From the NCBI GenBank assembly GCA_040752575.1, contig JBFMGK010000027.1, positions 90,360 to 154,359 on the forward strand: a DNA stretch of 64,000 nt, written 5' to 3'. Positions 52,228 to 63,054 of the stretch are shown here, piece after piece. This DNA is from Candidatus Bipolaricaulota bacterium. Its GTDB lineage: Bacteria > Bipolaricaulota > Bipolaricaulia > UBA7950 > UBA9294. The notes beneath the pieces were generated by a model that saw only the letters and a list, made by a program, of their open reading frames with translations, searched no databases and had not been told where the DNA came from. Each line of letters begins with the position of its first letter. Within the stretch, counting starts at the first letter, position 1. Made by a program: the position numbers and the translations under genes.

Positions 52228-54339
52228 TCACCTCCGAGTGACGACGAGCGTCGACGCGCCCGTCGGCACTTCGACGCAGACGATCTCGCCTCGCTCTACG
52301 GTCCGCAGAGGATGGCCGGACGCGTCGGCGACGTGGAGCGGATCAGGCGAGAAGAACGAGAACCAGTCTCGGCTTGCCTCGACGTGGATGTGCCAGGCGC
52401 CGTTCGTCGACGCGTGCTGCAGAGAGCCGACGGGCGCAGGGACTAGCTTGTCGAGGAAGCCGAGAGGAACGATGCCGTGGGCGCTGGGTGCGTACATCAT
52501 GTAGGCGACTTGTCCCGGAGCCAGGCGTCGAAACGTCGATTCGACGGTGCGGCCGGCGAGGACATCCCATGCCAGCGTCTCGGCGTCCGGACGCGGGAGC
52601 TCGAGGTCGGCCGTTCGATCGCTGGCATTCATCGCCCACACGTACTCCCAACGCGCCTCTCCCGCGAGGCGCTCGGTGCGGTAGACCTCGACGGGGCCTC
52701 CGAGCGTTGGCGTGTCGGGCATCGGCGGCGCGTCCGGGTGCAGAAGAACCCCGCGGGACGAGATCAACGAAGACACGAGCGCCGGGTCCGTCATCCCCGG
52801 GCCGTCTCCAATCCCGACAGGCCCGCAAGAGAGGGCACGCAGCGCGGCCTCGATGCGCGGCTCGGCTCCCCCGAGTCCAGGGTGAGCGCGCGAGAGGAAG
52901 AGGTCGTGGAATGGAAGAAGCCCCAGAGCGTAGAGCGCTGCGCCGACGAGGGCGTTCTGCCGCCGCAGGTGCCGCCGCTCCATCGCATCGCGGCGGAAGC
53001 CCGGATGCCCGAGGTTGGCGAGAGTCTCCAGCGCCTCTGGCTGACCGAACAGGTAATCGATGGCTGTGCGTGCCGCGAGGGCGTTCGGCATCTGGGTCGA
53101 GGCAAGGGCCATCCCCATCGTCTGCATGCACAACACCAAGCTCAGGCCCTGTCGGTGTAGTGCGCCGGCCATGTCCGAGAACCATCGATCGGCATGAACG
53201 GAATCGCTCCGCAGGGCGGAAGAGAGGTGCTGCTGCGTGCGAAGCCAGTCGTGCCACGCGGCACAGCCACCTTGGCGCGAGATTTCGGCCGCAACGTCTG
53301 TGTAGAAGTCAGCATCTCCGCCCTTCGCGCGGTAGCCGTTGTCTGCGGCCAGCGCGGAGAGGTGAAGCACGAAGCTCACGTCAAAGCGTCTTCCGAGGTC
53401 GGCAAGACCCCCTGCATACTTGGCCGGGTCCGGAGCGAATTGCACGGCTTGGCCGATCTCTCGGTAGGGGTACCAGAGGTCCAGACCCACGTACCCGATG
53501 GGGATGCCCATGCCGCGGAGCCCGGCGAGAACCTCGGCCAGGTGGTCCGCACCGAGTGGACGGATGGGCTCAGTGTAGTAGCCGCCGTAGGCATTCCACC
53601 ATCCCAGCGCGGACGTCGCCACGCTGGCCGCGGCGTCGGGGCGGCGCTTCCCGCCTTGTTGAAGAAGGGCATCCCCGAGCTGCAGGAGTGCCGCGGCGAC
53701 GTCATCGCCGCCGGCGCAAACGGTCTCGAGGATCGTCCCGGCGGGAAGCGATCCGATGGCTCCGTGCAATGCGCGCGCCGCACCACCGGGTGCGCGGACC
53801 AGAGGGCTCGTGAGAAACTGACTGGAGGGCGAGACGGCCAGCGCGCCACCCTCACCGTAGAGGACCAGGGGGGCGAACGCCTCCCTGGGCAGAGAGCCCG
53901 GCCCCCGGCCGCAGATCCCTGCGGGCCAGTATCCACCGAGCGATCCATCACCCGAGGATCCGAGCCCGTACGTGAAGGCGAGAAAGGCGGTTCCGGCAGC
54001 GAACTGGAACCGGGGCGCCGAGACGAGCGAGGTCTCGAAGGAGTCGTGGGTGGCCAGGTCCGAGACCGGCTCTTCGAGCACAACGCGGATCCAGACGACA
54101 TCGCCGCATGTCTCGACTTCCTGACGCGCTACGGGTTGCGTGCCCGCGGTCCAGGTTCTCTGGACGACACTCCGAAGCCCGCCGGCCCCCCGACCGATTG
54201 CGTGCTCCCAGGGTGAGGCCCGCAACGTCGTCTCTTGGTCGGCGCTCTGTCCGAACGAGACGGCGAGATCGCGAATCGCAACGCCGCCGCGCGCAATCGA
54301 CAACTCCCCGGAAGCGTCGATCCGCGCGGACAAGGTCAT
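52228..54339 (-). CDS. Uncharacterised glycoside-hydrolase-like protein (GH-D clan / raffinose-synthase-like features)
   Basis: Position in the sugar operon; LGWWNAYGGYY, YVGLDLWY, RALSCGPVGIGD resembling GH36/Sip1-type motifs; ATGA-coupled to the ROK gene. Confidence 0.5.
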   Translation of the reverse strand: MTLSARIDASGELSIARGGVAIRDLAVSFGQSADQETTLRASPWEHAIGRGAGGLRSVVQRTWTAGTQPVARQEVETCGDVVWIRVVLEEPVSDLATHDSFETSLVSAPRFQFAAGTAFLAFTYGLGSSGDGSLGGYWPAGICGRGPGSLPREAFAPLVLYGEGGALAVSPSSQFLTSPLVRAPGGAARALHGAIGSLPAGTILETVCAGGDDVAAALLQLGDALLQQGGKRRPDAAASVATSALGWWNAYGGYYTEPIRPLGADHLAEVLAGLRGMGIPIGYVGLDLWYPYREIGQAVQFAPDPAKYAGGLADLGRRFDVSFVLHLSALAADNGYRAKGGDADFYTDVAAEISRQGGCAAWHDWLRTQQHLSSALRSDSVHADRWFSDMAGALHRQGLSLVLCMQTMGMALASTQMPNALAARTAIDYLFGQPEALETLANLGHPGFRRDAMERRHLRRQNALVGAALYALGLLPFHDLFLSRAHPGLGGAEPRIEAALRALSCGPVGIGDGPGMTDPALVSSLISSRGVLLHPDAPPMPDTPTLGGPVEVYRTERLAGEARWEYVWAMNASDRTADLELPRPDAETLAWDVLAGRTVESTFRRLAPGQVAYMMYAPSAHGIVPLGFLDKLVPAPVGSLQHASTNGAWHIHVEASRDWFSFFSPDPLHVADASGHPLRTVERGEIVCVEVPTGASTLVVTRR

Positions 54340-55528: not shown

Positions 55529-55558
55529 AGTATAGAATGCTCCCCGATGGGGAGTCAA
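55529..55558 (-). promoter_or_regulatory. Promoter of the ROK/maltodextrin operon
   Basis: TTGACT-N18-TATACT on the minus strand. Confidence 0.7.
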
Positions 55559-55578: not shown

Positions 55579-55607
55579 TTGACCGGGCCTCGTCGTCCCT
55601 CTAGAGT
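55579..55607 (+). promoter_or_regulatory. Promoter of the phosphoesterase/ParB-fusion operon (probably leaderless)
   Basis: TTGACC-N17-TAGAGT, 8 nt before the GTG start; no SD sequence. Confidence 0.6.
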
Positions 55608-55615
55608 CAACGATC

Positions 55616-56257
55616 GTGAAGGCGCTGGTGTTGAGCGACGTCGTGAGGGAGGTCTTCTATGCCGAAGACCCGCACCGCACCGTAGGCGAGATCGACATCA
55701 TCCTGTCTTGCGGTGATCTGCCCTACGAGTACCTGGAGTATGTCCTGACCATGCTGAACGCTCCGCTCCTGTACGTGTACGGGAATCACGATCGAACCGT
55801 GTATGCCGAGGGGGGCGCGGTGAAGGAGGGGCCCGAGGGTGGCGTGGGGATTGACGGTCGGGTCGTGACGATCCGCACGCGTAGAGGAGACATCCTGCGC
55901 GTCGCCGGTCTCGGCGGAAGTCGCCGCTATAACGCAGGTTCTCACCAGTACAGCGAGGCCGAGATGCGAGCGCGCATCCGGCGCATGTCCCCTCGCCTGT
56001 TCTGGAATCTCTGGCGGCAAGGGCGAGGCGCGGATCTTGTGATCAGCCATGCAGCTCCCTGGGGAATCCACGACAACGCGGATCCTTGCCATCGCGGGTT
56101 CCGGGCCTACGTGAAGCTCATCGACCGGTTCCGGCCGAGGGTCTGGCTGCACGGGCACGTCCACCCGGAATACCAGACGGACCTTGCGGTTCGCCGGCGA
56201 GGCGACACCGAAGTGCGTTCGGTCTACGGCTACTCCGTCGTCGAGGTGAACCCTTGA
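55616..56257 (+). CDS. Calcineurin-like metallophosphoesterase
   Basis: LSD, CGDL, YGNHD, ISHA, HGHVH metal-binding motifs. Confidence 0.9.
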   Translation: MKALVLSDVVREVFYAEDPHRTVGEIDIILSCGDLPYEYLEYVLTMLNAPLLYVYGNHDRTVYAEGGAVKEGPEGGVGIDGRVVTIRTRRGDILRVAGLGGSRRYNAGSHQYSEAEMRARIRRMSPRLFWNLWRQGRGADLVISHAAPWGIHDNADPCHRGFRAYVKLIDRFRPRVWLHGHVHPEYQTDLAVRRRGDTEVRSVYGYSVVEVNP

Positions 56258-59091
56258 TCGACGCGGAGTTCGAGCGCGCGAGGCGGAAGGCGTCATTGCA
56301 TAGGATCCTGTCGTTCATCCAGGGCAAACCGTCATTCCTACTGCCGTTTGACGTCGTGCGGGATGCGGTCGACGTCCGGTCGACGTTCTACGCAGGGATC
56401 CGCGAGATCGACCTCGCGAAGGTCGTCGGAAGTGTCAACCGCTACCGCGACTTCGACCGGGAGTTCCTGCCCACGAGGGATGATTCGGCGGAACGATGGG
56501 CGAACGTCCACAGGACGTTCGAAGAGGGTCCCGGCTTCGCTCCCATTCGCGTCTACCAGGTCGGAGATGCGTACTTCGTCCTCGACGGCAACCATCGTGT
56601 ATCGGTCGCGAGGCAGATGGGGCTCAAGACGATCGAGGCCGAAGTGACGGTCCTCGAGTCGCGGGTTCCGTTCGACGGCCGCGTCCAGGCCGACGACATT
56701 CCCGTGAAGGCCGGATACGCAGCGTTTCTTCGCCGGACGCACCTCGACGAGAGCCGGCGGGAGCAGCGGATCGAACTCACGTTGCCCGGCGGATACGCCG
56801 TGCTGCTCGAGCACATCGCCGTACACCAGTACTACCTTGGCCTGCGGGAGCGACGAGATGTGTCGTACGAGGAGGCGGCGGCGTCCTGGTACGATCACCT
56901 CTACCAGCCACTTGCCCGAATTCTCCGCGAAGAGGACCTGTTGCGTTCCTTCCCGGGTCGCACCGAGGCCGACCTCTACGTCTGGATCGCCGAACACCTG
57001 TACTACCTGCGCGAGGAGTTCGGCGATGACGTGCGACTGGACACGGCCGCACGCGATTATGTGGAGATGAGACGAACCCCGATCTGGGCGAAGCTTGTGG
57101 CGGAATGGGAGGGGAAGATGCGACACGGAGAAGGCGGACGTGCGCCGTGGAGACCCCTGGGGCGCGAGACGCGGGAGCTTCGGCGCGTCGCCGCGCGGTT
57201 GGACCATCTGCGGCGGCAGGGCGACGACCAGCGCTACCGCGTTCCGCGCCGCTGGGTGGACCCGGCCGATGCGAGCGGCGACGTGATGGAAGCGTCCGCT
57301 GTGCGGTTCTGGCGCGACGCGGTGGACAGGGTCTTGCGCGCCCCCCGAGAGGATCTTCCCGAGGGGGCGGGGGGCTCATGGACGACCCGATCGACGATAT
57401 ACAACCTGTTCGTGCGAAGTGGATGTGCGTTCGACCACGACGGCGACGGCGTGATCCGCGCCGAGGGAGCGCGTCGGGAAACCGGGACGTTCCTGAAGGC
57501 CATCGCGTTGCTTCCGTACCTGCGCAGTCTCGGCTGCGACGTCGTCCATCTTCTCCCCATTGCGTCGATTGGCGCCGACGGCCGAAAAGGGGATCTGGGG
57601 TCGCCGTACGCGATTCGCGATCCCTATGCTCTCGACGAGAACCTCGCCGAGCCTCTGCTCGGTCTGGGTGTGGACGCGGAGTTTCGCGCGTTTGTGGAAG
57701 CCGCGCACCATCTCGGGATACGCGTCGTGACGGAATTCGTGTTCCGAACGGCGGCCAAGGATGCGGCGTGGGCGGAACAGCATCCCGAGTGGTTCTACTG
57801 GATCTCGGCCGACGTCCACGATCGCCCCGCAGGTAGTGTCGATGAGGCCCGATACGGGAACCCCGTGTTCACGCCCGAGGAACTCCAGCGGCTTCGGGAT
57901 GCCGTGGCCAAAGAGGAATACGACGACCTTGTGCCGCCGCACGCGAGCTATCGGGCGATGTTCTTGCCCGTGCCGCGTCGTGAAGACGTCGCGAGGCGGA
58001 AAGGGAGAATTGAAGCGGTGAGCCCTCAGGGTGCCAAGGCGAGGGTTCCCGGGGCGTTCGCCGATTGGCCGCCGGACGATACGCAGCCTCCGTGGAGCGA
58101 CGTCACCTACCTGCGCCTCTACGACCATCCCGACTTCAACTACATCGCGTACAACACGGTCCGGATGTACGACGCGCGGCTTGCCCGGGCGGAACACGCC
58201 GTGGTTCCACTCTGGGACAAGATCGTCGGCATCCTCCCTCATTACATCAGGACCTTTGGCATCGACGGCGCGATGGTCGATATGGGACACGCTCTTCCGC
58301 TGGACCTCAAGCGCCGAATCATCACGGAAGCGCGGGCCGCGAAGCCGGATTTCGCCTTCTGGGACGAAGACTTCTCGCTCCGCCGAGCCTCGCGCGACGA
58401 GGGGTACAACGCGGCGATGGGGAGTCTGTGGTGGACGCTGCACCGCGCGGAGGAACTCACGCAGCACGTCCTTCCGGGCTTGGCGCGCGAGGCTTCGCCG
58501 CTGCCGTTCTTCGCGACGCCCGAGACCCACAATACGCCTCGCTGTGCTTCTCGGTTCGGGGGGCGGGAGCGTTCCCGCGCCTCGTGGGCCGTTGCCGCCT
58601 TTCTCCCTGGCGTTCCGTTTGTCCACGGCGGGTTCGAACTCGGCGAGGTTCATCCTGTGAATACCGGGCTTGACTTCCCTCCCGACGCCGCGGCCACGTA
58701 CCCAGCGGAGGGGCTTCCCCTCTATGCCGCGCGCGCCTATGATTGGGCCGCCTCCGGCGACATCACGGCGGTACTCCGTCGTTGTCTCGAGATTCGTGCA
58801 GAGTTTCTCGACGTGATCTGCGACCCGTCTCCGGCCTCCCTTTCGGTGCTTTCGGCCGCTGAAGGTGCGGTGGCGTATGAGCGACGTGGCGACGGAGGGC
58901 GAGTGGCCGTTGCGGCGAACCTCTCGGCTGCACCGACGCGCGTGCGGCTCTCAGGGTTGTCGTTCGGCGACGGAGAGTGCATCGATCGGCTCGGAGGCCG
59001 GCGGGTTGTCGTCATCGGCGGCGATGCCTCGCTCGATCTGGCGCCGTGGGAGGCGATCGTGATGAGCGAACGCACGGCGCGATCGTCCTAG
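56254..59091 (+). CDS. Fusion protein: ParB/Srx-like domain + DUF4032-like helical repeats + GH13 maltosyltransferase-like domain (~945 aa)
   Basis: TTG start overlaps the upstream TGA; PIRVYQVGDAYFVLDGNHRVSVAR; two H..YL..(V/L)..AA..(W/Y) repeats; GTFLKAIALLPYL, GSPYA, FGIDGAMVDMGHALP, ETHNTPR. Confidence 0.8.
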   Translation: MIDAEFERARRKASLHRILSFIQGKPSFLLPFDVVRDAVDVRSTFYAGIREIDLAKVVGSVNRYRDFDREFLPTRDDSAERWANVHRTFEEGPGFAPIRVYQVGDAYFVLDGNHRVSVARQMGLKTIEAEVTVLESRVPFDGRVQADDIPVKAGYAAFLRRTHLDESRREQRIELTLPGGYAVLLEHIAVHQYYLGLRERRDVSYEEAAASWYDHLYQPLARILREEDLLRSFPGRTEADLYVWIAEHLYYLREEFGDDVRLDTAARDYVEMRRTPIWAKLVAEWEGKMRHGEGGRAPWRPLGRETRELRRVAARLDHLRRQGDDQRYRVPRRWVDPADASGDVMEASAVRFWRDAVDRVLRAPREDLPEGAGGSWTTRSTIYNLFVRSGCAFDHDGDGVIRAEGARRETGTFLKAIALLPYLRSLGCDVVHLLPIASIGADGRKGDLGSPYAIRDPYALDENLAEPLLGLGVDAEFRAFVEAAHHLGIRVVTEFVFRTAAKDAAWAEQHPEWFYWISADVHDRPAGSVDEARYGNPVFTPEELQRLRDAVAKEEYDDLVPPHASYRAMFLPVPRREDVARRKGRIEAVSPQGAKARVPGAFADWPPDDTQPPWSDVTYLRLYDHPDFNYIAYNTVRMYDARLARAEHAVVPLWDKIVGILPHYIRTFGIDGAMVDMGHALPLDLKRRIITEARAAKPDFAFWDEDFSLRRASRDEGYNAAMGSLWWTLHRAEELTQHVLPGLAREASPLPFFATPETHNTPRCASRFGGRERSRASWAVAAFLPGVPFVHGGFELGEVHPVNTGLDFPPDAAATYPAEGLPLYAARAYDWAASGDITAVLRRCLEIRAEFLDVICDPSPASLSVLSAAEGAVAYERRGDGGRVAVAANLSAAPTRVRLSGLSFGDGECIDRLGGRRVVVIGGDASLDLAPWEAIVMSERTARSS

Positions 59092-59627
59092 CTGGCGGCG
59101 GCGAACCCCTCTTCGAGCGCCTTTTCATTGACCGCGATCAACTTGTCCTTGCCGCTGCTCTGGAGAGCGGCCGCCATCGCGGCCTTGATGCGTTCAAGAG
59201 AGACGATGCCGGTGGCTCGAGCGTAGGCGCCCAAGGCAACCATGTTCCCTGTGCGCGCGTTGCCGGCACGAAGGGCGAGATCGTTGATCGGAAGCGCGAA
59301 CGAGGCGAGGTCGGTCCGCCTCACGGGACGCTCGATGAGCGATCGGTTCACGATCAACACGCCGCCCTTTGCGACGACGGACTCGAACTTCTCGAGTGAG
59401 GGGAGGTTCATCGCAATGACGGCGGTGGGCTCGTCGACGATCGGCGAACCGACCGGAGCATCGGAGAGGACGACCGTGCAATTGGCCGTTCCGCCCCGCA
59501 TTTCCGGGCCGTACGAGGGGAGCCACGTGACCTCGAGTCCGCTGTCCATCCCCGCTTGGGCAAGGATCTTGCCGGCGAGGATGACGCCCTGACCGCCAAA
59601 CCCGGCGATGACGACTGACGATTCCAT
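59088..59627 (-). CDS. 2-oxoacid:ferredoxin oxidoreductase gamma subunit
   Basis: AGFGGQG, PSYGPEMRGGTANC, NMVALGA. Confidence 0.93.
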   Translation of the reverse strand: MESSVVIAGFGGQGVILAGKILAQAGMDSGLEVTWLPSYGPEMRGGTANCTVVLSDAPVGSPIVDEPTAVIAMNLPSLEKFESVVAKGGVLIVNRSLIERPVRRTDLASFALPINDLALRAGNARTGNMVALGAYARATGIVSLERIKAAMAAALQSSGKDKLIAVNEKALEEGFAAAS

Positions 59628-61446: not shown

Positions 61447-61671
61447 TTACGCCGAGGGTTTCTCGCGGTAGACGGCCAACGCGATGTCCGGACACGTGAG
61501 GGCGCAGAATGCGCAGCCGACACAGCTTTCGGGTTTCGCGACGCATACGGTGTCGTATCCGCTCTGGTTCAGGGTTCCCGAGAGCGCGAGCACGTGCTGC
61601 GGGCAAGCCGCAATGCACAGCCCGCATCCCTTGCACCGCTCGACGTCGACGACGACCAGACCGCGCGCCAT
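61447..61671 (-). CDS. 2x[4Fe-4S] ferredoxin-like delta subunit
   Basis: CKGCGLC...CP and CVGCAFC...CPD. Confidence 0.92.
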
Positions 61672-61705
61672 TCGACCTCCTCTTGTCTCTTGCGTCCGCG
61701 CCGTG

Positions 61706-62161
61706 CTACGAGTCTCGTGGACGATGCCCGCCCGGGGCGGGATCTACAGCCCTCTTGCCGCGGCGCTTTCGGGCGCGCGCAATCGCGCTGCCCGCTCGGG
61801 CGACCCAATCGCGCACGCCGTCCTCGTGGGACGAGAGGCGCGGCACATCCGCTTCGCGCCGAAGAGACGTTCCCCGGCGATCGGCAAGAACCTGGTGGAG
61901 CCTGTCGAACTCCTGATCGAAGGCCGCTACGCTGTCCGCGTCGGCGCCCCGTCCAACCCTAAGAGGGGCCACGAGACTGCGGCCATCGGCGGCGCGCCCT
62001 TCCAGGACGAACTCACCGCGATATCCGACGGGCGCGTCAAAGCCCGGGCAAGGACGAAGCGTTGCGACCTCATCGGAGTCGAGACGCACCTCGGGCCCGG
62101 CTTCTCCCGCGACGATTTCGCCGAAGAGGGTTACGCGGTCATTCCAGCGCCGCTCATCCAC
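61706..62161 (-). CDS. Hypothetical protein (~151 aa)
   Basis: Fills the gap between rpmB and the ferredoxin gene on the same strand; GTG start with GAGG upstream; protein-like composition. Confidence 0.5.
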
Positions 62162-62175
62162 GCGGGAGACCTCGG

Positions 62176-62367
62176 CTACGATGCCTTGACTACGCGACCG
62201 GACTTGATGCACTGCGTGCAGACCCGCACCCATGCACGGCGTCCGTCGACCACAGCGTGGATGCGCTGCAGATTCGGTGCCTGGACACGGCGGGTGTGTC
62301 GCATCGAGTGGCTCACCATGTTCGCGGTGAGCGGCCGCTTCCCGCACACGCTACAGACCTTGGACAT
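62176..62367 (-). CDS. rpmB: 50S ribosomal protein L28 (zinc-ribbon form)
   Basis: MSKVCSVCGK..NMVSHS..HTRR...PNLQ..VCTQCIKSG. Confidence 0.95.
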   Translation of the reverse strand: MSKVCSVCGKRPLTANMVSHSMRHTRRVQAPNLQRIHAVVDGRRAWVRVCTQCIKSGRVVKAS

Positions 62368-62385
62368 CCCGGTTCACCTCGTTCT

Positions 62386-63054
62386 TTACCTTCCCACGGC
62401 CCCGAGCAGGGGCTCCGTGTACAGCGGTTCAAGCTCGCACAGATTGCTGTCGCGCAGTTCAAGTCCCAGGCGGGCGACGGCAAGGGCCGACGGAGACAGA
62501 GCCTCCGGCCGACCGAGGCGGACCCGCTCCGGAACCGCGACAGCCCCGACCGCTCGAACCGCCCCGCTCCCCACGACCAGCACGGGACGTTCGTCGTGCA
62601 CCAGACGCTCCACGAGATCTGCCTCGCGGAGCGCCAGGGTTGCCGTGGTCGGCTTCATGCCTGCGTACCAGCGAGCGTACACCATATCGTGTCGGCTCGC
62701 GATGACAACGCACACGCGATGGGCTTCGGCTCCCGCCTGGTGGCGATACGCCTGCGTCCCCTCGACTCCCCGCAACGGCACGCCCAACGCCTGGCACAGG
62801 CCCTTGGCGGTCGCCAAACCGATGCGTAGGCCGGTAAACGAACCCGGCCCCAGGTTGACGCAGACGGCCCCCACGTCCTGGACGCTGAGGCCCGTCTCGG
62901 CGAGCGACTCGCTGACCGTCGGGAGAAGGCACTCGGCGTGACGCAGAGGCTCGGCGAGGGCTCGCTCGACGGCAAGACCCGCCCCGTCGACCAGAGCCAC
63001 GCTGCCGCGCGACTCCGACGTATCGATTCCGACGACGAGCATGCCAAGGGGCAT
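62386..63054 (-). CDS. tsaB: tRNA threonylcarbamoyladenosine biosynthesis protein
   Basis: GIDTS, GPGSFTGLRIG...AKGL, LEPLY. Confidence 0.92.
   Translation of the reverse strand: MPLGMLVVGIDTSESRGSVALVDGAGLAVERALAEPLRHAECLLPTVSESLAETGLSVQDVGAVCVNLGPGSFTGLRIGLATAKGLCQALGVPLRGVEGTQAYRHQAGAEAHRVCVVIASRHDMVYARWYAGMKPTTATLALREADLVERLVHDERPVLVVGSGAVRAVGAVAVPERVRLGRPEALSPSALAVARLGLELRDSNLCELEPLYTEPLLGAVGR

Follow-up and report, generated by a model that had tools for sequence, protein, structure and literature searches.

The stretch of DNA analysed here, called the window below, comprises 64,000 nucleotides of a Candidatus Bipolaricaulota bacterium (assembly GCA_040752575.1, contig JBFMGK010000027.1, positions 90,360 to 154,359 of the forward strand). 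It carries a two-gene unit whose genes overlap by TTGA and which is transcribed divergently from the gene of a ROK-family regulator (Table 1). Gene 1 encodes a metallophosphoesterase (MPE). Gene 2 encodes a three-part protein, in which a predicted ParB/sulfiredoxin (Srx)-fold domain is followed by a helical domain of the DUF4032 type and by a GH13 domain resembling the maltosyltransferase (MTase) of Thermotoga maritima. We refer to the ParB/Srx-fold domain and the helical domain together, that is, to the first ~290 residues of gene 2, as the N-module. The MPE and the ParB/Srx-DUF4032 protein constitute a real, conserved and uncharacterised system, of which the maltosyltransferase is one lineage-specific partner among several.

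Table 1. Features of the MPE/N-module locus and of its flanks, in positions of the window.
Feature	Positions	Strand	Remarks
Gene 1, MPE, 213 aa	55616-56257	+	GTG start, TGA stop 56255-56257
Gene 2, three-part protein, 945 aa (P0003)	56254-59091	+	TTG start 56254; stop codon 59089-59091
N-terminal helix and predicted ParB/sulfiredoxin-fold domain, gene 2 residues 1-145	56254..56688	+	
DGNHR motif, gene 2 residues 111-115	56584-56598	+	aligns with the ParB GERR box
Helical DUF4032-type domain, gene 2 residues 146-292	56689..57129	+	internal ~36-residue repeat
GH13 maltosyltransferase-like domain, gene 2 residues ~300-945	57151..59091	+	
D676	58279..58281	+	aligned to the nucleophile of T. maritima MTase
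E705	58366..58368	+	aligned to the acid/base of T. maritima MTase
N760	58531..58533	+	aligned to the third catalytic Asp of T. maritima MTase
Promoter-like site of gene 1	55579..55607	+	TTGACC, 17 nt, TAGAGT; 8 nt upstream of the start codon
Promoter-like site of the divergent ROK gene	55529..55558	-	TTGACT, 18 nt, TATACT
ROK-family regulator, N-terminal winged helix	54336-55496	-	Pfam ROK E 1.6e-55, HTH_24 E 4.7e-7
p703, 703-aa protein between ROK and GH57	52228-54339	-	no Pfam family, no PDB sequence match
Oxidoreductase gamma-subunit gene	59088-59627	-	convergent with gene 2
485-aa open reading frame	61484-62941	+	no Pfam family

A first-pass annotation, made from the sequence alone, had described this arrangement: the two genes coupled by the TTGA overlap and divergent from the ROK gene, a calcineurin-like phosphoesterase, a ParB/sulfiredoxin-type DGNHR motif at 56584, two helical repeats resembling DUF4032, a GH13 domain resembling the Thermotoga enzyme, and no parA nearby. 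The coordinates are as it gave them, and each of these attributions stands on the evidence presented below. The start of gene 2 had to be settled separately, as the automatic gene call began at a later TTG (56296), which yields a protein of 931 aa (P0004). The upstream TTG is better supported: when 32 fused proteins are aligned, M1 is retained almost without exception and F6 and A9 throughout. In a relative, locus L002, the equivalent junction between the two genes is an ATGA overlap.

The assignment of the N-terminal domain to the ParB/Srx superfamily is based on the predicted fold together with a weak profile match, since Pfam cannot make it; NCBIfam gave no informative match for the gene 2 N-terminus either. 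A profile of 26 stand-alone relatives matches ParB chains weakly (4umk, E 0.015; 7bnr, E 0.1), and this alignment places DGNHR on GERR. The AlphaFold2 model of the N-module, built on the alignment of stand-alone relatives, has a predicted local distance difference test score (pLDDT) of 91.1 and a predicted TM score (pTM) of 0.84. Searched with Foldseek, it retrieved Noc, ParB, pNOB8 ParB, PadC, KorB and sulfiredoxin with a probability of ~1, the best local fit being the Srx of Arabidopsis (6ky4; TM score 0.67, root-mean-square deviation (rmsd) 2.6 Å, 83 columns). With VIA-align, all eight best matches of residues ~45-140 came from the ParB/Srx superfamily (Z 5.4-8.0), namely Srx (8.0 and 7.0), free serine kinase (6.9), PadC (6.8), KorB (6.3), SbnI (6.3), Atu1540 (5.5) and pNOB8 ParB (5.4). 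According to the model, residues ~45-140 of gene 2 have the ParB/Srx core fold.

The remainder of the N-module is all-helical in the AlphaFold2 model. Residues 196-271 match Pfam DUF4032 (PF13224) with 30.3 bits, the cut-off being 23.8, and cover positions 89-160 of the 163 in the profile; 13 of the 26 stand-alone relatives match this family as well, and there are DUF4032 matches in Thermus thermophilus and Corynebacterium glutamicum. The two helical halves are not aligned to each other by BLASTP, although a profile-profile comparison with hhalign aligns them over 36 columns with a probability of 92% (E 6e-7).

The DGNHR motif is conserved. In the 26 stand-alone relatives D111, G112 and R115 do not vary and H114 hardly does, and in the 32 fused proteins all four of these residues are invariant. 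The stand-alone relatives also share G59, R63, F71, P73 and R81, and, in the helical domain, Y181, W212, Y217, P219, F233, T237 and D240. Twenty of the 23 residues that are invariant in stand-alone proteins are also invariant in the fused ones, which have 50-61% identity to the window protein, and their retention argues that the N-module is under selection within the fusion.

The family to which the N-module belongs is large, with 3876 cluster representatives at E<=1e-3 and 407 at E<=1e-30; the protein atlas names it 'DUF4032/ParB N-terminal domain-containing protein'. Its members include stand-alone proteins of ~280-340 aa, forms of ~560-590 aa, tandem duplications and one representative of ~948 aa. 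The PADLOC defence models gave no N-module match. What follows the N-module at its C-terminus varies: it may be nothing, a second N-module, two Usp domains, a SLOG/LOG domain (P0145), an AsnC-type ligand-binding domain (P0270) or, as in the window, a GH13 enzyme. The length of the GH13-fused form (~931-958 aa) is found in 32 of the best 120 relatives listed, and the fusion recurs in eight related loci, so that it is not peculiar to this assembly.

The product of gene 1 matches Pfam Metallophos (PF00149, E 6e-10). Its AlphaFold2 model (pLDDT 93.6) has 146 PDB matches at E<=0.001, and all those listed are metallophosphoesterases. The nearest folds are Dbr1, MPPED2, aq_1956, Mre11, purple acid phosphatase, GpdQ and Rv0805 (TM score 0.5-0.64), and the closest PDB matches of the MPE sequence profile are MPPED2 (E 4.6e-4) and Dbr1 (E 8.5e-3). 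By fold and profile comparison, most of these nearest relatives are phosphodiesterases. Metallophosphoesterases canonically carry the motifs DxH, GD, GNH[DE], H and GHxH; the residues invariant across 37 orthologues of the MPE are D8, D34, N57, H58, H145, H159, H179 and H181. In PADLOC, residues 138-187 partially match the candidate PDC-S10 (E 3.4e-8). A complex prediction for the MPE and the N-module scored 0.00, a value that counts neither way on binding, as controls were not run.

The folds of the two proteins could be taken to indicate a unit that acts on nucleic acids, with the N-module as a ParB-like DNA or RNA binder, the MPE as a Mre11- or Dbr1-like nuclease and the fusion as a maltodextrin-responsive 'trigger enzyme'. 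Dbr1 and Mre11 are among the top folds of the MPE, the Foldseek alignments of the N-module to Noc, ParB and KorB, in which a helix-turn-helix (HTH) follows the ParB domain, extend over 230-265 columns, and two Atlas clusters bear the automatic name 'transcriptional regulator family protein'. However, the long Foldseek alignments have rmsd values of 13-19 Å, and the invariant residues of the helical domain are mostly aromatic or acidic (Y181, W212, Y217, F233, T237, D240), not basic. VIA-align of this domain found no HTH match (Z <= 4.9), an outcome that is inconclusive rather than negative. The defence library returned no match except the partial one to the MPE motif, and the pair is present in single copy among varied, mostly housekeeping neighbours. 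We consider it very unlikely that the unit works on nucleic acids.

The joint distribution of the two genes was determined in 151 genomes of Bipolaricaulota, the phylum of the window, and in 151 genomes of Chloroflexota (among them G192, which has neither gene), an MPE being counted as present at E<=1e-20. Of the Bipolaricaulota genomes, 58 have the N-module and 53 the MPE. Each of these 53 carries the N-module as well, the two genes being adjacent in every case by comparison of coordinates, and no MPE was found in the 93 genomes without an N-module. The corresponding numbers in Chloroflexota are 61 genomes with the N-module and 56 with the MPE, all 56 of which carry the N-module, and no MPE in the 90 genomes without it. 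There the pair lies on one contig within 1.5 kb in 34 of the 56 genomes, in several arrangements: MPE then N-module, N-module then MPE, or divergent. Within genera the presence of the pair is patchy yet always joint; in genus g1, for instance, G052, G122, G125 and the genome of the window (G000) have both genes, whereas G032 and G039 have neither.

In 41 of 42 loci of the phylum the MPE is directly upstream of the N-module on the same strand, the exception being L138 with a divergent N-module, and this placement is independent of the MTase fusion, which is present in 8 of the 42. An MPE orthologue adjoins the Usp-fused metagenome loci in 15 of 80 cases; if only the 38 loci flanked by 900 bp or more on either side are counted, the number is 12. 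It lies downstream in convergent orientation in 11 loci and upstream in the same orientation in 4. Adjacency was counted here by profile; a neighbourhood clustering of 114 loci (34 stand-alone, 80 Usp-fused) found no neighbour conserved in more than 12, a weak analysis whose crude filter for overlapping open reading frames (ORFs) missed the MPE. At least three protein clusters hold both proteins in one polypeptide: P0269 joins MPE and N-module, P0270 adds an AsnC/Lrp ligand-binding domain to them, and P0196 is a single chain of MPE, N-module and two Usp domains (35% identity to gene 1; profile E 2e-60). In locus L220 the MPE and the N-module lie within a single open frame.

Taken together, joint patchy presence, several gene orders, co-occurrence without linkage and fusions argue strongly that the two proteins act jointly. 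The pairing with the phosphoesterase put forward in the first-pass annotation is thus conserved across genomes, in both phylum samples and in the single-polypeptide fusions. Of the refuting conditions named in that annotation, none of the three open to computation applies, since the N-terminus is modelled with the ParB/Srx fold, the pairing is conserved and the fusion recurs in other loci. As judged from these genome comparisons, the conserved unit is the MPE with the N-module, not the three-part fusion. One record needs a comment: locus L008 comes from the same genome as G099 (= G154), with identical N-module coordinates, and its label 'uncultured Thermotogae bacterium' disagrees with the genome taxonomy, which assigns G099 to the window's family.

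The variety of C-terminal partners bears on the role of the GH13 domain, for which the first-pass annotation had suggested a maltodextrin sensor or a regulated output. This suggestion fits the finding that Usp, SLOG/LOG and AsnC-type ligand-binding domains occupy the equivalent C-terminal position in relatives. An alternative would be a pure allosteric switch without chemistry on a third molecule, in which, as in ParB, binding of a nucleoside triphosphate (NTP) drives self-association of the ParB/Srx domain and thereby opens or closes a dimeric maltosyltransferase, or a Usp or SLOG partner, while the MPE clears the nucleotide. The best global folds of the N-module include the cytidine triphosphate (CTP)-switch proteins Noc, ParB and KorB, its phosphate box is conserved, and it heads an enzyme that works without it in relatives, as is typical of an added regulatory domain; moreover, fusions of the ParB fold to ligand-sensing CBS domains are described in a published survey (PMC12704722). 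However, stand-alone N-modules of ~290-340 aa with no effector are common, so the N-module must have an output of its own, and no dimerisation domain was recognised. The dedicated, strictly co-occurring phosphoesterase also speaks against a pure switch, as known ParB switches hydrolyse their own CTP. We therefore assign this mechanism a low, if appreciable, probability.

The GH13 part of gene 2 is well defined. Residues 374-897 match the T. maritima maltosyltransferase 1gju over chain residues 78-608 (E 3.4e-84), Pfam recognises Alpha-amylase/hDGE_amylase (405-532) and Malt_amylase_C (865-934), and unfused homologues align to gene 2 from residue ~302-328 onward. The match to GlgE is confined to residues 402-524 (E ~3e-15). 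The catalytic residues were compared in an alignment of 87 sequences, consisting of the window protein and the ORFs of loci L001-L080 and L131-L136; in the numbering of the T. maritima enzyme we take the catalytic triad to be Asp385, Glu414 and Asp468. The positions of D676 and E705 are conserved in all 87 sequences. The third catalytic position is Asn in 85 and Asp in two (L019, L078), and around it the window protein reads ETHN where the T. maritima enzyme reads ETPD. The large clade with His-Asn at this site spans metagenome-assembled genomes of Chloroflexota, Bacteroidota, Ignavibacteriota and Bipolaricaulota, His-Asp being usual in GH13, and is relevant to the annotation of genes called 'alpha-amylase', 'maltosyltransferase' or 'GlgE-like'.

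We considered whether Asn760 could mark a GH13 domain inactivated specifically in the fusion to serve as a 'sensor', and rejected this idea, as Asn is found in 85 of the 87 fused and unfused sequences and the fused gene is the only MTase of its genome. Since G000 has a single MTase copy, the fused gene itself, enzyme function is presumably retained there, and the fused maltosyltransferase is probably still catalytic.

The fusion occurs in two of 80 MTase-homologue loci from genome_contigs, both labelled as metagenome-assembled genomes of Bipolaricaulota, the other 78 being unfused homologues, and among the 80 a gene 1 homologue lies beside those two only. In the Bipolaricaulota sample, MTase-type GH13 is present in 14 of the 151 genomes, all of one family. 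Seven of the 14 carry the fusion (genera g1 and g10), three (genus g6) have an unfused MTase and keep a separate MPE/N-module pair, and four (G032, G039, G020, G093) have an unfused MTase and no pair. The unfused MTase of genus g6 is found in a window-like synteny of GH57, p703, ROK, divergent MTase and POR genes, with the pair elsewhere. A quick maximum-likelihood tree was calculated for 28 MTase domains, namely that of the window, 8 fused and 7 unfused ones from the phylum, and an outgroup of 12 unfused ones from other phyla, which omits 66 of the 78 unfused sequences from other phyla. In this tree all nine fused MTases form one clade (SH-aLRT 93), the unfused MTases of G032 and G039 nest within its g1 part (98 and 96), and those of g6, g3 and g12 branch outside it. 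The simplest reading of the tree and the synteny is one insertion-and-fusion at the ancestral MTase locus beside ROK/GH57/MalEF, in one subclade of Bipolaricaulota, followed by two losses of the N-module together with the MPE.

A further alternative is a fusion that has no functional meaning, in which an MPE/N-module cassette was inserted ahead of the MTase gene and the loss of a stop codon linked functions that are unrelated. In its favour, the MTase functions without the N-module in relatives, and the N-module and the MPE were lost again in two genomes of the same genus. Nevertheless, the fusion has been kept down to ~50% identity with the key N-module residues invariant, it persists in two or more genera and in L001 and L002, and a second and a third alpha-glucan context exist in other genera. 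We hold an accidental fusion to be scarcely credible.

These additional contexts are found in Bipolaricaulota. In genus g33 the MPE, the N-module and a glycogen synthase form an operon (L125, 6337-9258; G095, contig C72, 1179-3386), and L111 and L112 have a GH57 gene at a distance of ~2 kb from the pair. The N-module is also associated in this phylum with GlgA (PF08323), as 46 genomes have both, 12 the N-module only, 17 GlgA only and 76 neither. In contrast, there is no association in the Chloroflexota sample, where the corresponding numbers are 36, 25, 49 and 41. Furthermore, 48 of the 58 Bipolaricaulota genomes with an N-module have no MTase-type GH13, and most stand-alone pairs have unrelated neighbours, such as UvrA, aldehyde:ferredoxin oxidoreductase, MetRS and CDP-alcohol phosphatidyltransferase. 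The pair as a general glycogen-metabolism unit was considered and discarded, because the GlgA association of the home phylum is absent in Chloroflexota. From the genomic contexts, the tie to alpha-glucans is real for the fused lineage and not for the N-module family overall.

Two proposals of the first-pass annotation do not survive in their general form. One tied the unit as such to alpha-glucan metabolism, against which stand the 48 of 58 N-module genomes lacking an MTase, the four of 14 MTase genomes lacking the pair and the missing GlgA link in Chloroflexota. The other saw in the fusion an analogue of the maltokinase/GlgE route; as a general function this is unlikely, again because most N-module genomes are without an MTase and the GlgA link is absent in Chloroflexota. 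A sugar- or glucan-phosphorylating version would make the N-module a SerK/SbnI-like kinase of maltose, maltodextrin or glucan, whose product the GH13 enzyme uses or remodels in the manner of GlgE, or whose phosphate opens the glucan in the manner of GWD/SEX4, the MPE then removing the phosphate. The gene fusion itself is a Rosetta stone link between N-module and MTase, the closest folds include those of free serine kinase (Z 6.9) and SbnI (Z 6.3), the phylum offers three alpha-glucan contexts (MTase fusion, GlgA operon of g33, GH57 near L111/L112), and the counts of 46, 12, 17 and 76 link N-module and GlgA within it. Set against this are the many MTase-free N-module genomes and unrelated neighbours, the lack of a GlgA association in Chloroflexota, and partners of the Usp, SLOG and AsnC type that are unrelated to sugars. 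The Asn at the third catalytic position is, moreover, family-wide (85/87) rather than specific to the fusion. On balance this version appears improbable.

The ROK gene is the first of a divergent operon that continues with p703, a GH57 enzyme ending in a glucodextranase C-terminal module, a solute-binding protein, a MalF-like permease and two GH13 amylases, and a glycogen synthase gene lies beyond these genes. The ROK-headed synteny is retained in L002, L131, L132, L134 and L136. Downstream of gene 2, three genes for subunits of a 2-oxoacid:ferredoxin oxidoreductase are convergent with it; its stop codon and that of the gamma-subunit gene overlap at 59088-59091, and no terminator-like site was found between the two genes. 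The position of p703 is kept in relatives, and its predicted structure in the protein atlas is near raffinose-synthase/GH36-type glycosidases (TM score 0.72-0.82). Farther downstream, the 485-aa ORF has matches in L232, L233 and L236-L238 that are split over several ORFs, so that either the gene is often disrupted or the long ORF is in the wrong frame.

The 119-bp spacer between gene 1 and the ROK gene contains two promoter-like sites, compared with 0.4 expected. The hexamers of both are invariant in all four aligned intergenic regions, as are the CAGTATAG and GTCAAGA blocks. Gene 1 starts with GTG in the window and with ATG in three relatives. Because the -10-like element ends 8 nt before this start, the mRNA of the MPE/fusion operon may be leaderless or nearly so, and the position of the site suggests as much for the gene 1 transcript. 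The first-pass annotation had called the divergent operon ROK-controlled: the ROK gene is indeed divergent and the first of the operon, but no conserved operator-like palindrome is apparent in the spacer. A ROK operator shared by both directions was therefore dropped as a candidate, since conservation in the spacer is limited to the ROK leader and the two promoter-like sites, which stand back to back. A search of sequencing runs listed no RNA run and one DNA run with 0.23 of the words.

No ParA-like gene is found among the neighbours or on the contig of the window (C27). Elsewhere in G000 there are two ParA-like (AAA_31) matches, both on contig C60. Pfam ParB_N has no match anywhere in this genome (94.7% complete) at E<=0.01, a canonical ParB thus not being found by this query.

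Our preferred interpretation is that the MPE and the N-module carry out a nucleotide-driven cycle that is coupled, through the C-terminal domain, to a metabolic partner, here the maltosyltransferase; we give this interpretation a probability of about 0.55. The ParB/Srx domain would bind a nucleoside triphosphate at its G-x-H-R box, and would then either hydrolyse the nucleotide or pass on a phosphoryl or nucleotidyl group to a ligand that is bound with the help of the helical domain. The MPE, whose nearest relatives are phosphodiesterases, would hydrolyse the product and reset the cycle. The variable C-terminal domain (Usp, SLOG/LOG or AsnC-type in relatives) would couple the cycle to a metabolite. 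In the window protein, the cycle would be coupled to a maltosyltransferase that is probably still catalytic, and hence to the turnover of maltodextrins and alpha-glucans beside a ROK-headed operon for their uptake and degradation.

Several observations weigh against this interpretation. With respect to the fold, Pfam ParB (PF02195) does not match the gene 2 product even at E<=10 and matches none of the 26 stand-alone relatives at E<=0.01, although some relatives have a precomputed PF02195 match, and residues 145-290 give only weak helical matches in VIA-align (Z <= 4.9), leaving the helical domain without an informative structural match. As for the MPE, its first metallophosphoesterase motif is without His in the alignment of 37 sequences (SDxV, not DxH), and its substrate class is a guess from weak neighbours (TM score 0.5-0.64; E 4.6e-4). 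Concerning the partnership, the pair is unlinked in 22 of the 56 Chloroflexota genomes, with a separation of ~512 kb in G230 and of ~438 kb in G153, for example, and five genomes in each phylum sample have an N-module and no MPE at E<=1e-20; in the five of Bipolaricaulota (G005, G079, G089, G101, G142) the N-module matches are partial, interrupted or divergent. It is also important to note that genomes of one phylum are kin, so that the co-occurrence counts overstate the number of independent events. In addition, the two genomes of the same genus that lost the N-module and the MPE and yet keep the MTase indicate that this enzyme works without the N-module. Lastly, the architecture, the predicted folds, the two-protein partnership and the history of the fusion are established by the comparisons above, whereas nucleotide binding, chemistry, substrate and direction of control are what the interpretation would add to them.

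A further-reaching form of this cycle can be formulated. The idea of a writer and an eraser, raised in the first-pass annotation, is possible for the MPE/N-module pair: the N-module would be an NTP-dependent transferase of the ParB/Srx type and the MPE a dedicated phosphodiesterase, in an unrecognised and widespread cycle whose swappable C-terminal domains set the input or the target. In the window's lineage, the cycle would have alpha-glucan metabolism as its direct target, with glucan, maltodextrins or the MTase itself being reversibly phosphorylated or nucleotidylated, for instance. We regard this reading as a whole as rather unlikely. If it were true, it would be a bacterial counterpart, built from unrelated folds, of the GWD/SEX4 cycle of plants.

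The broader significance lies in the pair itself. A large family with a strictly co-occurring, sometimes fused phosphoesterase and with metabolite-binding partners suggests that Chloroflexota, Bipolaricaulota and other phyla possess a two-enzyme cycle that has not been described. Among the variants of this unit, only the fusion to maltosyltransferase has a partner of known substrate that is simple to assay; it is therefore the most practical entry point to the function of the unit and the first handle on its possible role. Among the papers open to our literature search, none dealt with the MPE/N-module pair and none mentioned DUF4032. A preprint (bioRxiv 10.64898/2026.10.19.760177) appears to deal with ParA-linked effector systems and not with this pair. 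In a 2025 survey of the ParB-CTPase fold (PMC12704722), the ParB/Srx fold is presented as recently recognised to be a versatile NTP-binding module beyond chromosome segregation. DUF4032, Usp, amylase and phosphoesterase are not mentioned in the main text of that survey, whose supplementary tables may list such fusions, and one of its section headings states that the nucleotide specificity of the fold is not reliably predicted by sequence analysis or AlphaFold3 (PMC12704722).

Compared with known systems, the N-module has in common with the ParB/Srx superfamily (Srx, ParB/Noc/KorB, PadC, SerK, SbnI) the core fold predicted for residues ~45-140 and the position of the phosphate box, where DGNHR falls on the GERR of ParB. 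The G-x-H-R form of the motif is presumably closer to the Srx box (G-C-H-R) than to the ParB box. Unlike ParB, the window protein has no ParA partner, and neither an HTH nor a C-terminal dimerisation domain was recognised in it; relative to the whole superfamily, the N-module adds a family-specific helical domain of the DUF4032 type and a dedicated MPE partner. The GH13 part is homologous to the T. maritima maltosyltransferase (1gju/1gjw) over residues 374-897 and has the nucleophile Asp and the acid/base Glu in common with it, but it has Asn for the third catalytic Asp and is preceded by an N-terminal module of ~290 aa. MPPED2 and Dbr1, the best sequence-profile matches of the MPE, have a motif of the H-x-P-P-x-G-I-H-D type near H145 in common with it, whereas the MPE, with only 213 aa, lacks the first-motif His and in the genome samples always accompanies the N-module; a similarity this weak does not allow a substrate to be carried over.

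In plants, phosphorylation of glucan by the GWD/PWD kinases is reversed by the SEX4/LSF2 phosphatases. This cycle and the maltokinase/GlgE route resemble the locus of the window in placing a writer and an eraser beside alpha-glucan enzymes, a likeness that is a functional analogy only. There is no homology to those enzymes, and most occurrences of the pair are without an alpha-glucan context. The closest published parallel in design that we can name is that of the archaeal ParB-CBS proteins, in which a nucleotide-binding fold of the ParB type is likewise combined with a small-molecule-binding domain, and which the authors interpret as a link between the binding or hydrolysis of nucleotides and the metabolic state (PMC12704722). 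By comparison with the ParB-CBS proteins as described there, the partners in the present family are Usp, SLOG/LOG, AsnC-type domains and a whole GH13 enzyme, and the ParB-type fold is accompanied by the DUF4032 domain and the MPE.

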